Below, piece after piece: positions 5,770-27,070 of a DNA stretch of 64,000 bases; the stretch's first letter is position 1; each line of letters starts with the position of its first letter. The notes beneath the pieces are model-generated. The model had not been told where the DNA came from. It saw only the letters and a program-made list of their open reading frames with translations, and ran no database searches. The DNA is from Escherichia phage APCEc01, in sequence record NC_029091.1; one strand, given 5' to 3'. A program made the translations under genes and the position numbers.

Positions 5770-5843
5770 GGCCCTGTAGCTCAATGGTTAGCAGCAGTCC
5801 CCTCATAAGGGAAAGGTTACCAGTTCGAATCTGGTCTGGGTCA
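5770..5843 (+). tRNA. tRNA with anticodon CAU (Met or Ile2/AUA-reading type)
   Basis: Hand fold: acceptor GGCCCTG/CTGGGTC (one U-U mismatch), T arm ACCAG-TTCGAAT-CTGGT, anticodon loop CTCATAA; no encoded CCA. Confidence 0.6.
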
Positions 5844-5849
5844 TATATT

Positions 5850-5926
<77 letters not shown>

Positions 5927-14183: not shown

Positions 14184-14416
14184 GTATAGCAATTTACATT
14201 AAATCAGAATCATGTGATAGTTATCTGTACACATATGATAAAGATGTGTCAGAAGAAAAAATCAAAGACGACCTTAATATGGACCTTGATATGTTCTGTC
14301 CTATTGCAGATTACAAACTTGCGGTCTCTAATAGTGAAAGTCCATCTAAAGAAACGCGCATTGAAGAATTTATGTCCGAATTAATGGCCAAATCATGGGA
14401 CCGAGATGATGAGTAA
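14180..14416 (+). CDS. hypothetical acidic protein
   Basis: ATG 14180 overlapping upstream stop; 78 aa. Confidence 0.45.
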   Translation: MSIAIYIKSESCDSYLYTYDKDVSEEKIKDDLNMDLDMFCPIADYKLAVSNSESPSKETRIEEFMSELMAKSWDRDDE

Positions 14417-14864
14417 GAAAAATAAAGTGAAAGAACTATCAGCCGGTATTATTTTCCTTACCGAAGATAAAGAATTATTCATGGGGCGTGTAACTGGTTC
14501 TCGTCCTAAAGGTGCATTAGCTCATCGGTGGGATATTCCTAAAGGCCGTGTCGAACCTGGCGAATCTCCTATTGAAGCCGCTATTCGTGAATGCGAAGAA
14601 GAAACTGGGTTTACACAATATGACCCTGCCTTCCTGAAAGACCTAGGTGAACATCATTACTCAGACAATAAGAATATTCATCTGTTCCTATATACCATCC
14701 CTGTAGAGCACGAGCAATTCAGAAACAGTGTTTGTAATTCCTATCATACATTCCCAGACGGACGACAGATTCCTGAATTTGATGCATTCGCTTTAATTAA
14801 ACCTTCTCAATGGGAATATGTAATGGGTAAATCATTATATAAGGTGCTCACTACACTCCTATAA
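14406..14864 (+). CDS. nudE: Nudix hydrolase (NudE-like)
   Basis: Nudix box GRVEPGESPIEAAIRECEEETG; immediately upstream of e as T4 e.1/nudE. Confidence 0.7.
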   Translation: MMSKKNKVKELSAGIIFLTEDKELFMGRVTGSRPKGALAHRWDIPKGRVEPGESPIEAAIRECEEETGFTQYDPAFLKDLGEHHYSDNKNIHLFLYTIPVEHEQFRNSVCNSYHTFPDGRQIPEFDAFALIKPSQWEYVMGKSLYKVLTTLL

Positions 14865-14871
14865 GTAATAA

Positions 14872-14897
14872 ATACCTCCTATAAACGTGGGAGGTAT
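14872..14897 (+). promoter_or_regulatory. stem-loop sequestering the lysozyme Shine-Dalgarno; possible late promoter
   Basis: ATACCTCC (14872-14879) pairs with GGAGGTAT (14890-14897), which contains the GGAGG RBS of gene e; TAATAAATA at 14866-14874 resembles late TATAAATA. Confidence 0.5.
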
Positions 14898-14898
14898 T

Positions 14899-15387
14899 AT
14901 GAATATATTTGAAATGCTTCGTAATGACGAAGGTCTTAGACTGACTTTATACAAAGACACTGAAGGCTTTTGGACGATTGGCATAGGCCATTTAGTAACA
15001 AAGAACCCGTCTTTAGCCGTAGCTAAAGCTGAACTTGACAGAATGATCGGTCGTAAATGCAACGGTACAATTACCCTTGATGAGGCTGAAAAGCTATTTA
15101 ATGAAGACGTTGATAAAGCCGTCCGCGGAATCTTGGGTAATGCTAAACTTAAACCGGTATATGATTCTTTAGACGCAGTTCGTCGGTGTGCATTGGTCAA
15201 TATGGTCTTCCAAATGGGTGTAGCAGGAGTCGCCGGTTTTACTAATTCTCTTCGTATGCTTCAACAGAAACGTTGGGATGAAGCGGCAGTAAATCTAGCC
15301 CAATCTAAATGGTATCGTCAGACACCTAATCGCGCGAAACGCGTAATCTCAACATTTAAAACAGGAACTTGGAAAGCGTATATATGA
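14899..15387 (+). CDS. e: lysozyme (endolysin, T4 e-like)
   Basis: [32 protein letters not shown]... near-identical in pattern to T4 lysozyme; 162 aa. Confidence 0.92.
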
Positions 15388-23491: not shown

Positions 23492-23671
23492 ATGACCCGT
23501 GAACAAGCTAATAAATTGATGGAACTTATCCGTAACTTACGTGAAGCCGATTCAGATTTGAATGATGTAGCTTATCATGCAGTAAATGATAACGAAGACT
23601 TTTATGAAAATCAGGTTGATGCTTGTCTGAATGATTTGGTGAATTTTGTTGAAACTTTAATTGGTGAATAA
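23492..23671 (+). CDS. hypothetical small acidic protein (59 aa, below track threshold)
   Basis: ATG 23492 to TAA 23669-23671; a 36-codon ORF (23385..23495) precedes it. Confidence 0.35.
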   Translation: MTREQANKLMELIRNLREADSDLNDVAYHAVNDNEDFYENQVDACLNDLVNFVETLIGE

Positions 23672-23672
23672 T

Positions 23673-24203
23673 ATGAAAACTGTAATTGAAACAACCGAGT
23701 TGTTTGGCGATTTATGTATCGAAAAACGTGGTTATGCTTACGTTCTGACACAAGAAGATGATGCTGTTACTATTCTTCCTATGGAACTGGACAAGATTTT
23801 GAAACTCAATCCGCCCGGCCATGCATCTGTAATTAACATTGATGAAGACCTTCAAGTTCGTTTTTATCACGGTCTTTATAGTGGGGTTAATATCGAAACA
23901 GAAGATGAATGCCTTTCTATCAATAATTGGAAAACATTCGTCACTAAGGTGAAAGAATTCATAGAATCTGAAACTGCCAAAAAGGCCAAACTTCAATGGG
24001 CTAAATGCCGTAATGCTTTTATTACAAATCAGGACCGCCCTGACTATACAACAGTCCTAGGCGTTAATCCTTCTTATGAAGACGGTGATGTCGTAGTTAT
24101 TCGCCAAATTGATGACCTTCGTCAACATATCATTACATTAGACAAAGATGAAGCAGTTGCTCTTAAAGCTTATCTTGATTCTATTATCCCAACCTTGAAA
24201 TAA
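23673..24203 (+). CDS. hypothetical protein
   Basis: ATG 23673; 176 aa. Confidence 0.5.
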   Translation: MKTVIETTELFGDLCIEKRGYAYVLTQEDDAVTILPMELDKILKLNPPGHASVINIDEDLQVRFYHGLYSGVNIETEDECLSINNWKTFVTKVKEFIESETAKKAKLQWAKCRNAFITNQDRPDYTTVLGVNPSYEDGDVVVIRQIDDLRQHIITLDKDEAVALKAYLDSIIPTLK

Positions 24204-24213
24204 GGAAATTATT

Positions 24214-24687
24214 ATGATTATCAATGAAAACTCTTGGCACTTTAAAATTTATGCCGCGTTCAATAGTACATGGAATCGTCCGAAAACGTTGTGTGCTTAT
24301 TTTTGGAAAACGCTAATCCCGGTATTGGCTGCTTCAATTATTGGATTTGCGATTTTAGCAGCAGTCACAATCATTGGCCAGGAAATTTTAACTAAATTCT
24401 TTGTTTTTAGCAGTCTATGGACATTAGTTCCAGCCTCAATTGGTGTAGGCATTTTGATTGTAGCAGTCATGGCTTTTATTGCTACCGGGTTGGTAATTGG
24501 TCCGTCTTGGTTGTTAGACAAATATAACGACAGAAAATATTATAAAGAAATTGAGCTCATTGCGCAAAACCAAGAACGAATTAAAAATGGACTTGAGCCT
24601 ATTGAACGTAAGAAATCATTAATAGGCGAATACCTTAAAGCTCGTAAAGAAAAAGTCTGTCCTACTCTTGAATATAAGGCTAAATGA
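24214..24687 (+). CDS. membrane protein
   Basis: 157 aa with three hydrophobic helices. Confidence 0.5.
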   Translation: MIINENSWHFKIYAAFNSTWNRPKTLCAYFWKTLIPVLAASIIGFAILAAVTIIGQEILTKFFVFSSLWTLVPASIGVGILIVAVMAFIATGLVIGPSWLLDKYNDRKYYKEIELIAQNQERIKNGLEPIERKKSLIGEYLKARKEKVCPTLEYKAK

Positions 24688-25673
24688 TGAAAACAATTAT
24701 GAAAGGCTACTTTGGTAGCCACCTTTATGGAACGTCTACTCCTGAATCTGACGTCGATTTTAAAGAAATTTATGTCCCTCATGCTCGTGATATCTTGACC
24801 GGTAACGTTAAAGAACACATGAGCAAGAACACGAATAACACATCTTCTAAGAACACAAAAGACGACGTGGACCATGAGTTATATAGTCTCAAATATTTCT
24901 TTAAACTAGCTGCGGATGGTGAAACCGTCGCATTAGATATGCTTCACACTCCACAAAGTCTAGTAGTTAAATCTGATTTGCCTGATGTATGGAAGTATAT
25001 TCAAGATAACAGGTCTCGTTTCTATACCACTAACATGAAATCTTATTTAGGGTATGTCCGTAAGCAAGCTTCTAAATACGGTGTCAAGGGTTCTCGACTG
25101 GCCGTTCTTCGTCAAGCCCTTAAACGTTCTAATGAATGGGGACAATACTTTGATAATGGTGCAGTAATTCGTTTATCACATATGAAGAATGTTCTGCCCG
25201 TAGGTGAATTTGCTTCGTGGGTTGAAACCGAAAACAAGAAAACAGGTAAGCAAACATTCTATAATCTGTTAGACCGTAAATTCCAAGATACGTTAACCAA
25301 TAAAGAGTTCAATGCCATCCTGGTTAAACTTGAAGAGAACTATGGCGAACGTGCTCGTAAGGCAGAAGCCAACGAAGGTATTGACTGGAAAGCATTGAGT
25401 CATGCATGTCGTGGTGGACTTCAATTATTGGAAATTTACAAAACCGGCGACCTGGTTTACCCACTTCAGGATGCTCCATTTATTCTCGATGTTAAGCTTG
25501 GTAAACATACGTTTAAAACTGTACAAGAATTCCTAGAAGATATCGTTGACCAAGTTGAACATGCGTCAGAACAAGCCGCTAAGAACGGTATGCAACAAAA
25601 AGTAGATATGAGTTTCTGGGATGATTTCCTTGAGCAAGTCTATCTCGAAAATCATAATTCTTACTATAAATAA
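24684..25673 (+). CDS. Pol-beta superfamily nucleotidyltransferase-like protein
   Basis: N-terminal GSHLYGTSTPESDVDF fits the NTase motif G[SG]x(9-13)Dh[DE]; 329 aa; function unknown. Confidence 0.5.
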   Translation: MMKTIMKGYFGSHLYGTSTPESDVDFKEIYVPHARDILTGNVKEHMSKNTNNTSSKNTKDDVDHELYSLKYFFKLAADGETVALDMLHTPQSLVVKSDLPDVWKYIQDNRSRFYTTNMKSYLGYVRKQASKYGVKGSRLAVLRQALKRSNEWGQYFDNGAVIRLSHMKNVLPVGEFASWVETENKKTGKQTFYNLLDRKFQDTLTNKEFNAILVKLEENYGERARKAEANEGIDWKALSHACRGGLQLLEIYKTGDLVYPLQDAPFILDVKLGKHTFKTVQEFLEDIVDQVEHASEQAAKNGMQQKVDMSFWDDFLEQVYLENHNSYYK

Positions 25674-26050: not shown

Positions 26051-26089
26051 TAGACCTATCGAAACGAAATGAGTAAATTGGAGAATAAA

Positions 26090-27070
26090 ATGTTCAACGT
26101 TCAAATCAAAAAAGGTATCTATCGTAATAACGAAATCTCTGGTTCTTATGTTGCCACAAAGACCTGGTTCCCGGCAAAGCTTAATCCTGAATGTTCCCAC
26201 TTAGGTGATGGTAAAATTTTCGTTATTATTGATGGTTCTGAACGTGGAGTATGGGTCTTCAAATCAGACATCGTAATGGAAGGAGTTGAGACATCACCAG
26301 TTGCAGTTGTTGAAAGCACTGAAGATATGAAAACCCGTATCAACAAACGCTTTAAAGTAATGAACATGATGACGAATGGTATTATCGATGGCAAAATTCG
26401 TTCACTCATTATTTCAGGTGCAGCTGGTATTGGTAAGACGTATTCTCTGGATAAAGCACTTAATAATGCTAATGATAATGGTTTCATCAAATACAAAAGC
26501 ATTAATGGTAAAATCTCTGGTATTGGCCTTTACGAACAACTTTGGCTCAACCGTGATGCAGACAGCGTTCTCTTAATCGATGACGTTGACGTATTCTCAG
26601 ATATGGACATCCTGAACCTTCTTAAAGCAGCATTAGATACCGGAGATAAACGCAAAGTTTGTTGGAGCACTGCGTCATCTTATCTCGAGGATAAGGGTAT
26701 TGATAAAGAATTTGAGTTTGAAGGTACTATCGTTTTCATTACAAACGTTGATATCGATAAAGAGTTAGAACGGGGTTCGAAACTTGCTCCACATCTTCAA
26801 GCTTTAGTATCTCGTTCAGTGTATCTCGACCTTGGAGTACACTCTAATGAAGAGATTATGGTTCGAGTTGAAGATGTAATATTATCTACTGACATGATGC
26901 AGAAACGTGGTCTGACGGATGCAGAAACGTATAAAGCATTGTCCTGGATGAAGGCTAACGTATCTCGTCTTCGCAATGTATCATTACGTACGGCTCTTTA
27001 TGTAGCAGATTTTATTTCAACTGATAAAGATGGTTGGGAGGAAATCTCTGAAGTAACTTTACTGAAATAA
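26090..27070 (+). CDS. AAA+ family ATPase, function unknown
   Basis: ATG 26090 after GGAG; Walker A ISGAAGIGKT, Walker B VLLIDDVD; 326 aa. Confidence 0.55.
   Translation: MFNVQIKKGIYRNNEISGSYVATKTWFPAKLNPECSHLGDGKIFVIIDGSERGVWVFKSDIVMEGVETSPVAVVESTEDMKTRINKRFKVMNMMTNGIIDGKIRSLIISGAAGIGKTYSLDKALNNANDNGFIKYKSINGKISGIGLYEQLWLNRDADSVLLIDDVDVFSDMDILNLLKAALDTGDKRKVCWSTASSYLEDKGIDKEFEFEGTIVFITNVDIDKELERGSKLAPHLQALVSRSVYLDLGVHSNEEIMVRVEDVILSTDMMQKRGLTDAETYKALSWMKANVSRLRNVSLRTALYVADFISTDKDGWEEISEVTLLK

Follow-up and report, generated by a model that had tools for sequence, protein, structure and literature searches.

NrdC.11 of T4-like phages, a probable long RlaP-type nucleotidyltransferase, and its possible part in RNA repair

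What does the nucleotidyltransferase (NTase) encoded in the early region of T4-like phages, between tk and nrdC, do for the phage? The question is raised by a 64,000-nucleotide stretch of Escherichia phage APCEc01 (NC_029091.1), here called the window, meaning the whole stretch analysed, in which an open reading frame (ORF) at 24684..25673 codes for a 329-residue protein that a preliminary description had taken for a Pol-beta-type NTase of unknown role. We propose that the protein is, with little doubt, a member of the RlaP family, a family already named and partly characterized, to which the T4 ortholog of this gene has itself already been assigned. Furthermore, as the best explanation overall, to which we give a probability of roughly 0.55, we propose that it is a NrdC.11-type RlaP that extends the 3'-OH end of RNA by one or two nucleoside monophosphates (NMPs), contributing an accessory step to phage RNA (tRNA) repair.

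The ORF, its length and its GS-x10-DVD signature were read exactly as first described: the N-terminal sequence MMKTIMKGYFGSHLYGTSTPESDVDFKEIY comprises G11-S12, ten residues and D23-V24-D25, and the internal stretch YFGSHLYGTSTPESDVDFKEIY, read directly from the ORF, gives the same G11-S12-x10-D23-V24-D25. The Pol-beta-type assignment was borne out by a match to the Pfam family RlaP (PF10127; 49.6 bits against a cut-off of 23, E = 5.6e-13), in which residues 7-152 cover profile positions 23-148 of 249, and by a full-length match to phrog_388, annotated 'nucleotidyltransferase' (E = 6e-126). A tblastn search of 50,697 phage records found relatives in 1519 of them, and among 1.84 billion representative proteins E <= 1e-30 was reached by 742 clusters at 50% identity; because of these matches and this breadth the gene is far beyond a chance ORF. 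The diverse relatives were obtained with a 36%-identical jumbo-phage homolog as the query, the window protein itself having retrieved just near-identical T4-like proteins. Since the local gene order in the window (tk - rI - small ORFs - y05I-like - membrane protein - NTase - 88-aa secreted protein - nrdC.10 - ... - nrdC) is shared with T4, we identify the ORF as the T4 nrdC.11 ortholog, a name that Aeromonas phage 31 and Acinetobacter phage Lazarus also give to their homologs. Over the full length, alleles of the T4 type share about 78% identity with the window protein; the class of alleles with an identity of at least 95% to it was seen in 145 phage records, and alleles 60-80% identical in 860.

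We then examined the conservation of the predicted active site in an alignment (A2) of 92 full-length relatives with 28-56% identity, plus one 99%-identical sequence. G11, S22, D23, D25, Y132, R223, K236, H240, R243 and P260 are invariant in it, while S12, D61, D63, D85, K131, R138 and D234 are among the residues conserved in at least 90% of the sequences; D61 and D63 are both invariant in a separate alignment (A1). When A2 was compared by hhalign with an alignment of canonical RlaPs, the N-terminal core (query columns 4-93) matched with a probability of 94% and E = 1.5e-7, D23 and D25 falling on D39 and D41 of canonical RlaP, the hG[GS] motif on S26-G27, and D63 on D72, the invariant third aspartate. 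The check on which the preliminary description had staked its assignment, namely that the acidic triad should be complete on alignment, thus came out in its favor, and because D23, D25 and D63 are all present the enzyme looks catalytically competent. As far as the aligned sequences go, its relationship to canonical RlaP is real but distant.

An AlphaFold2 model built from A2 (mean predicted local distance difference test score 92.5, predicted template modelling score 0.79) displays a beta-sheet NTase core at residues 3-68 (strands 3-10, 24-31, 45-49 and 62-68), followed by helices at 69-155, a three-stranded beta insert at 177-201 and a helical bundle at 206-328 whose last helix spans 309-328. 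The long helical C-terminal domain noticed at the outset is therefore seen again in a confident model. D23 and D25 are found where strand 24-31 begins, and D61 and D63 where strand 62-68 does, so that the model predicts for D23, D25 and D63 the canonical three-carboxylate arrangement of Pol-beta NTases. The beta insert together with the helices at 119-155 largely explains why the protein is longer than canonical RlaPs, which have about 255 residues. When the core was removed and the C-terminal halves were compared by hhalign, the alignment was collinear but weak (probability 2%, E = 0.02); in it K236-x3-H240-x2-R243, part of an invariant basic helix motif that we consider a candidate surface for binding nucleoside triphosphates (NTPs) or RNA, falls on K149-x3-Y153-x2-R156 of canonical RlaP. 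Searches of PDB sequences with the protein and with its profile returned nothing meaningful, the crystal structure of the Pseudomonas fluorescens RlaP (PfRlaP) apparently not being among the PDB copies searched. In fold searches the best solved-structure match was HalB (PDB 9dbh/9dbj), over 125 residues of the NTase core only and at 17% identity, and matches in BFVD were limited to other viral 'nucleotidyltransferases'.

The RlaP family was defined, as cited in two later papers (PMC12776372, PMC7824862), by Burroughs and Aravind in 2016. A 2021 survey of jumbo phages found RlaP to be their most prevalent RNA-end NTase, with a distribution that 'closely mirrors the RNA ligases', and predicted that it restores nucleotides lost to RloC-like nucleases ahead of ligation (PMC7824862). 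More recently, a December 2025 preprint characterized PfRlaP and its P. aeruginosa counterpart PaRlaP, both encoded between rtcB and rtcA: these enzymes prefer Mn2+ and add one or two NMPs, and also deoxynucleoside monophosphates (dNMPs), to the 3'-OH of RNA, with neither DNA nor E. coli proteins serving as substrates; on a cleaved-tRNA mimic they favor the broken anticodon-loop end over the acceptor end, and they restore part of the aminoacylation of a tRNA from whose anticodon loop one nucleotide is missing (PMC12776372). The crystal structure reported there comprises an N-terminal NTase domain and a C-terminal helical domain, and the same work places T4 NrdC.11 in network cluster 5 of the family as an 'RlaP of unknown function' (PMC12776372). 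We found no functional study of nrdC.11 itself in the literature searched. The block nrdC.11-mobD.3 is among those lost from a viable genome-reduced T4 (PMC9825161), and the T4 mutant record OL964745.1 keeps just the last 39 codons of nrdC.11; the gene is dispensable in the laboratory and belongs to the accessory complement of the phage.

Contextual information was sought in prokaryotes by scanning one genome per bacterial or archaeal species, which yielded at least 210 stretches coding for full-length NrdC.11-type proteins, many of them on contigs of at least 1 Mb from Desulfobacterales, Nitrospirota and Alphaproteobacteria. The long NrdC.11-type subfamily is thus present in bacteria as well as phages, which is new here. 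The proteins of the best 80 stretches, 33-52% identical over the full length, were taken further by calling, clustering and Pfam-annotating the neighboring ORFs, with a distance limit of 6 kb for repair genes. A gene for a canonical RlaP of about 255-290 residues comes directly after the long gene, on the same strand, in about 20 of 75 loci, the downstream partner matching PF10127 almost end to end (positions 1-248 of 249, E = 5.9e-81), whereas the long-type homolog from Nitrosospira displays the same partial match as the window protein. Because the two types coexist as a pair they are unlikely to be redundant, and the recurrence of this two-NTase arrangement suggests either a division of labor or a heteromeric enzyme. 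An RNA-repair gene (for RtcB, RtcA, Hen1, Ro60/TROVE or a bacterial Pnkp-ligase) was observed within the limit in at least nine of the 80 loci. By a rough estimate, which takes a single-copy gene such as rtcB and genomes of several thousand genes, only about 0.1 coincidences would be expected in 80 loci; RNA-repair genes are accordingly strongly enriched near the bacterial long NTases. The order Ro60 - RtcB - RtcA - long NTase - RlaP - Hen1 was found on an uncultured Nitrosospira contig (CAADGK010000054.1; L039:1558-12060), which forms a dense RNA-repair island; the Hen1 gene there is followed by a 359-aa ORF and by a gene for a DUF2201/VWA metallopeptidase-like protein. Elsewhere, three bacterial or metagenome-assembled loci (L016, L019 and L023, the last of which also carries RtcB) share a module downstream of the NTase, which combines a small ORF with genes for a 516-aa UDG-superfamily protein and for a ResIII/SNF2-type helicase and may be a mobile element or a phage block. 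An apparent 601-aa fusion of a long and a short NTase (L078) was discarded as an ORF-calling artefact, its two matches lying in different reading frames.

The standard example of a phage undoing RNA damage inflicted by its host is the repair, by T4 Pnkp and Rnl1, of tRNA-Lys cleaved by PrrC. RloC's removal of the wobble nucleotide was proposed in 2008 to defeat precisely this repair (PMC2610378). By analogy with the characterized RlaPs, we consider it probable that the window protein adds nucleotides to RNA 3' ends; the more specific scenario, in which it would cooperate with Pnkp and Rnl1 against an RloC-type lesion, we advance more tentatively. In that scenario a host RloC-type anticodon nuclease would cut the tRNA and remove a nucleotide, and Pnkp would heal the ends, clearing the 2',3'-cyclic phosphate from the tRNA 5' half. 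The NTase would then re-add a nucleotide at the 3'-OH of the 5' fragment by template-independent transfer from an NTP, using D23, D25 and D63 with a divalent metal (Mn2+ in the characterized relatives), and Rnl1 (or Rnl2) would seal the break last, thereby restoring at least some functional tRNA. One might go further and posit that the long RlaPs constitute a functionally distinct branch and supply the missing third enzyme of phage tRNA repair, rebuilding the nucleotide or nucleotides that RloC excises, and that in bacteria they form an obligate pair with canonical RlaP in which each member has its own step, nucleotide or end; this extended version is rather unlikely as a whole. Were it true, it would answer the 2008 question of whether T4-like phages reverse wobble-nucleotide excision. 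If NrdC.11 does re-add the nucleotide, it would be the phage answer to the escalation that RloC represents, and a gene found in more than 1500 sequenced phages would gain a function. Long and canonical RlaPs, occurring as pairs in the RNA-repair islands of bacteria, offer biochemists a defined two-enzyme system.

On the phage side, the numbers of records with NrdC.11-like and Rnl1-like genes per host genus are close to each other (Klebsiella 286/287, Shigella 83/83, Acinetobacter 69/69, Enterobacter 56/56, Aeromonas 75/77, Vibrio 59/54 and Escherichia 607/635), which is consistent with co-distribution of the two. In Shigella phage JK45, nrdC.11 (56.4-57.4 kb) lies 55-85 kb from the repair genes, namely those for Rnl2 (112.2-113.2 kb), Pnkp (137.8-138.7 kb) and Rnl1 (140.7-141.8 kb). 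Several observations weigh against a role in RNA repair and temper the probability given above. The match in counts could be explained by shared Straboviridae ancestry alone, and the NTase has no adjoining RNA-repair gene in the window, in distant Straboviridae or in three large-phage contigs from metagenomes. A repair neighbor is likewise missing from most of the 80 bacterial loci, where the neighbors code for transporters, kinases and other proteins. The available biochemistry is confined to canonical RlaPs, to which the significant match extends over about 90 N-terminal residues, the C-terminal halves showing no significant alignment. The pairing of the long with the canonical type in bacteria means, moreover, that the two may differ in substrate or step, and the closest solved structure is that of HalB, an enzyme that makes DNA and does no RNA tailing. 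Finally, the literature searched reports no phenotype of an nrdC.11 mutant on a nuclease-bearing host.

The alternative that shares most with the repair model is that the enzyme tails RNA 3' ends in general, apart from break repair, either maintaining the CCA ends of tRNAs or tailing host RNAs so as to alter their stability or block their aminoacylation. The gene does lie among host-takeover and accessory genes clustered in the early region, and ARAGORN detected only two tRNA genes in the window, for tRNA-Met (CAT) and tRNA-Arg (TCT), of which the tRNA-Met gene has no encoded CCA; since TAT follows instead, this tRNA needs post-transcriptional CCA addition. Deutscher, Foulds and McClain are said to have found in 1974 that CCA-less T4 tRNAs rely on the host CCA-adding enzyme, which counts against an effective phage CCA-adder. 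The genes near the bacterial long NTases, furthermore, code for break-repair enzymes (RtcB, RtcA, Hen1, Pnkp-ligase) and include no tRNA maturation genes. In total RNA from E. coli, canonical RlaPs do label species the size of full-length tRNA and rRNA, with little NTP specificity, but on a cleaved-tRNA mimic they prefer the 3' end at the break (PMC12776372), and we judge general tailing to be improbable. The chances are smaller again for nucleotidylation of a small molecule or protein, such as a host factor or toxin, in the manner of ANT/kanamycin NTase (KNTase), LinB or MNT-like AMPylation, the other idea put forward in the preliminary description. A weak fold resemblance to ANT and LinB is what speaks for it, yet these structural matches stay at TM scores of about 0.3 and reflect mainly the shared NTase core, and no such sequence family reaches its threshold. 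E. coli proteins are not substrates of canonical RlaPs (PMC12776372), and the bacterial neighbors point to RNA and away from antibiotic resistance or toxin-antitoxin pairs. For the antibiotic-NTase kind suggested in the preliminary description no support was found, close similarity to KNTase or LinB in sequence or structure not being seen.

The standing of HalB as best structural match invites the comparison with template-independent synthesis of DNA or deoxy-oligonucleotides, be it the tailing of DNA ends or the making of a decoy or signal, for example oligo-dA that would keep a Hailong-type channel closed. This we regard as very unlikely: the match is confined to the NTase core and the architecture of HalB is different, canonical RlaPs do not extend DNA (PMC12776372), in bacteria the homologs have RNA-repair genes, not HalA-like channels, as neighbors, and PADLOC models (2023), which may however pre-date Hailong, gave no match. 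Least probable of all, and indeed disfavored to the point of being scarcely credible, is the cGAS/DncV-like NTase (CD-NTase) that had been suggested as a maker or modifier of a cyclic or linear signalling nucleotide, a suggestion whose sole support is the generic GS...DxD...D signature common to all Pol-beta NTases. No CD-NTase, SMODS or Mab-21 family in Pfam and no PADLOC model was matched at E <= 1, and the fold is not of the cGAS/DncV type. An operon with a nucleotide-sensing effector is likewise not seen, the neighbors in the window being small proteins, a membrane protein and an AAA-like protein, and those in bacteria being RNA-repair or unrelated genes. What stands of the earlier interpretation is thus the NTase assignment, while the signalling idea is left with no support from sequence, fold or context.

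The source phage is a T4-like Tequatrovirus, and over 6 kb around the gene it shares 99.9% identity with Shigella phage JK36 and 98.5% with the RefSeq phage JK45. Because the start of the ORF shares an ATGA overlap with the stop of the upstream membrane-protein ORF, the gene is part of a tightly packed same-strand gene string; a second in-frame ATG directly follows the first and serves as the start in many database entries, giving 328 residues. A scan for promoters and terminators returned promoter-like counts that were the same as in shuffled controls. The neighborhood is not kept across Straboviridae, the gene lying between rIIB and dda in Vibrio phages. Two genes upstream of the NTase the window codes for a y05I-like putative transcription factor that matches both PF24449 and PF24448. 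The nrdC.10 ortholog codes for a 333-aa protein with a Walker-A/AAA-like region, sub-threshold matches to AAA_22, AAA_16 and STAND, and a weak one to HTH_37. We considered nrdC.10 as a conserved partner of the NTase and rejected it, since adjoining homologs are limited to closely related Straboviridae (L003, L014); an AAA_5 gene at L007 and L008 has no detectable relationship to it. Many GenBank and UniRef orthologs of the NTase, for example those of phages FL31, AV116 and mobillu and of a T4 mutant record, are labelled 'thioredoxin'. No thioredoxin domain was found in the window protein by Pfam, and the label appears to be an error spread from the locus name nrdC.11. In the Escherichia phage vB-Eco-KMB43 (OR525698.1) the homolog matches in two pieces that cover 67% of the query and may be disrupted or rearranged. 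On one of the three metagenomic large-phage contigs (L010), a gene at 14218-14948 for a Thg1-like 3'-5' polymerase, of the kind acting in tRNA 5'-end repair, follows an NrdC.11-type NTase at a distance of about 6 kb downstream; the contig also carries NADAR, NAPRTase and PRPP-synthetase genes.

Table 1. Features of the window and bacterial loci of the long NTase subfamily discussed in the text
Feature	Position in window or locus	Strand	Remark
Complete nrdC.11-ortholog ORF, 329 aa + stop	24684..25673	+	ATG start; RlaP-family (PF10127) NTase, 'long' subfamily
N-terminal Pol-beta NTase core, about aa 1-95	24684..24968	+	sole part aligning significantly with canonical RlaP
G11-S12, 'GS' of the hG[GS] NTP-binding motif	24714..24719	+	conservation in A2
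D23-V24-D25 (GAC GTC GAT), first two metal-binding carboxylates	24750..24758	+	D23 and D25 invariant
D61-V62-D63	24864..24872	+	D63 putative third catalytic carboxylate, start of strand 62-68
Small three-stranded beta insert, aa 177-201	25212..25286	+	AlphaFold2 secondary structure
K236-ALS-H240-AC-R243, invariant basic helix motif of the C-terminal domain	25389..25412	+	K236, H240 and R243 invariant in 92 sequences
Upstream membrane-protein ORF	24214..24687		ATGA overlap with the NTase ORF
y05I-like putative transcription factor	23661..24203		PF24449 and PF24448
nrdC.10 ortholog	26069..27070		333 aa
tRNA-Met (CAT)	5770..5843		
tRNA-Met and tRNA-Arg genes together	5770..5926		ARAGORN, whole window
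RtcB within 6 kb of long NTase	L023, L033, L039, L061, L091		
Ro60/TROVE within 6 kb	L036, L039, L088		
RtcA within 6 kb	L039, L072		
Hen1 within 6 kb	L039		
Bacterial Pnkp-ligase within 6 kb	L045		
Pair of long NTase and canonical RlaP	L018, L020, L026, L030, L035, L039, L048, L059, L066, L067, L072, L076, L081, L087, L091		

In comparison with known systems, the enzyme stands furthest from Hailong. HalB, 217 aa long and homotetrameric, makes poly-dA with a tyrosine of its own as primer (PMC13434031); a profile search of the PDB detected no sequence relationship between it and the window protein, and the combination that marks Hailong, a short tetrameric protein-primed synthase beside a HalA channel, is not what the window gene presents. 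Kanamycin nucleotidyltransferase ANT(4') and LinB share the two-domain layout of an NTase followed by a helical domain. Canonical RlaP shares that succession too, and in addition the Pfam family, a homologous NTase core and the three conserved aspartates, although at 329 against about 255 residues the window protein exceeds it by about 75, largely through an extra helical segment and the beta insert. Both the canonical and the long type are linked to RtcB/RtcA in bacteria, and their occurrence side by side implies distinct roles.

The nearest counterpart is T4 NrdC.11 itself, a 38.9-kDa protein encoded between nrdC and mobD, whose gene lies in the same tk - rI - (mobD) - nrdC.11 - nrdC.10 - nrdC early region; relative to it the window gene represents a distinct allele class, and no mobD homing endonuclease lies upstream of it in the window. 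The role proposed here would place the NTase in the same phage counter-defence pathway as the healing and sealing by T4 Pnkp and Rnl1 against PrrC, the partner genes being present in JK45. Unlike these two enzymes, NrdC.11 lies outside the classical two-enzyme scheme and is genetically unlinked to it, and would be needed only after the loss of a nucleotide, as in an RloC-type lesion.

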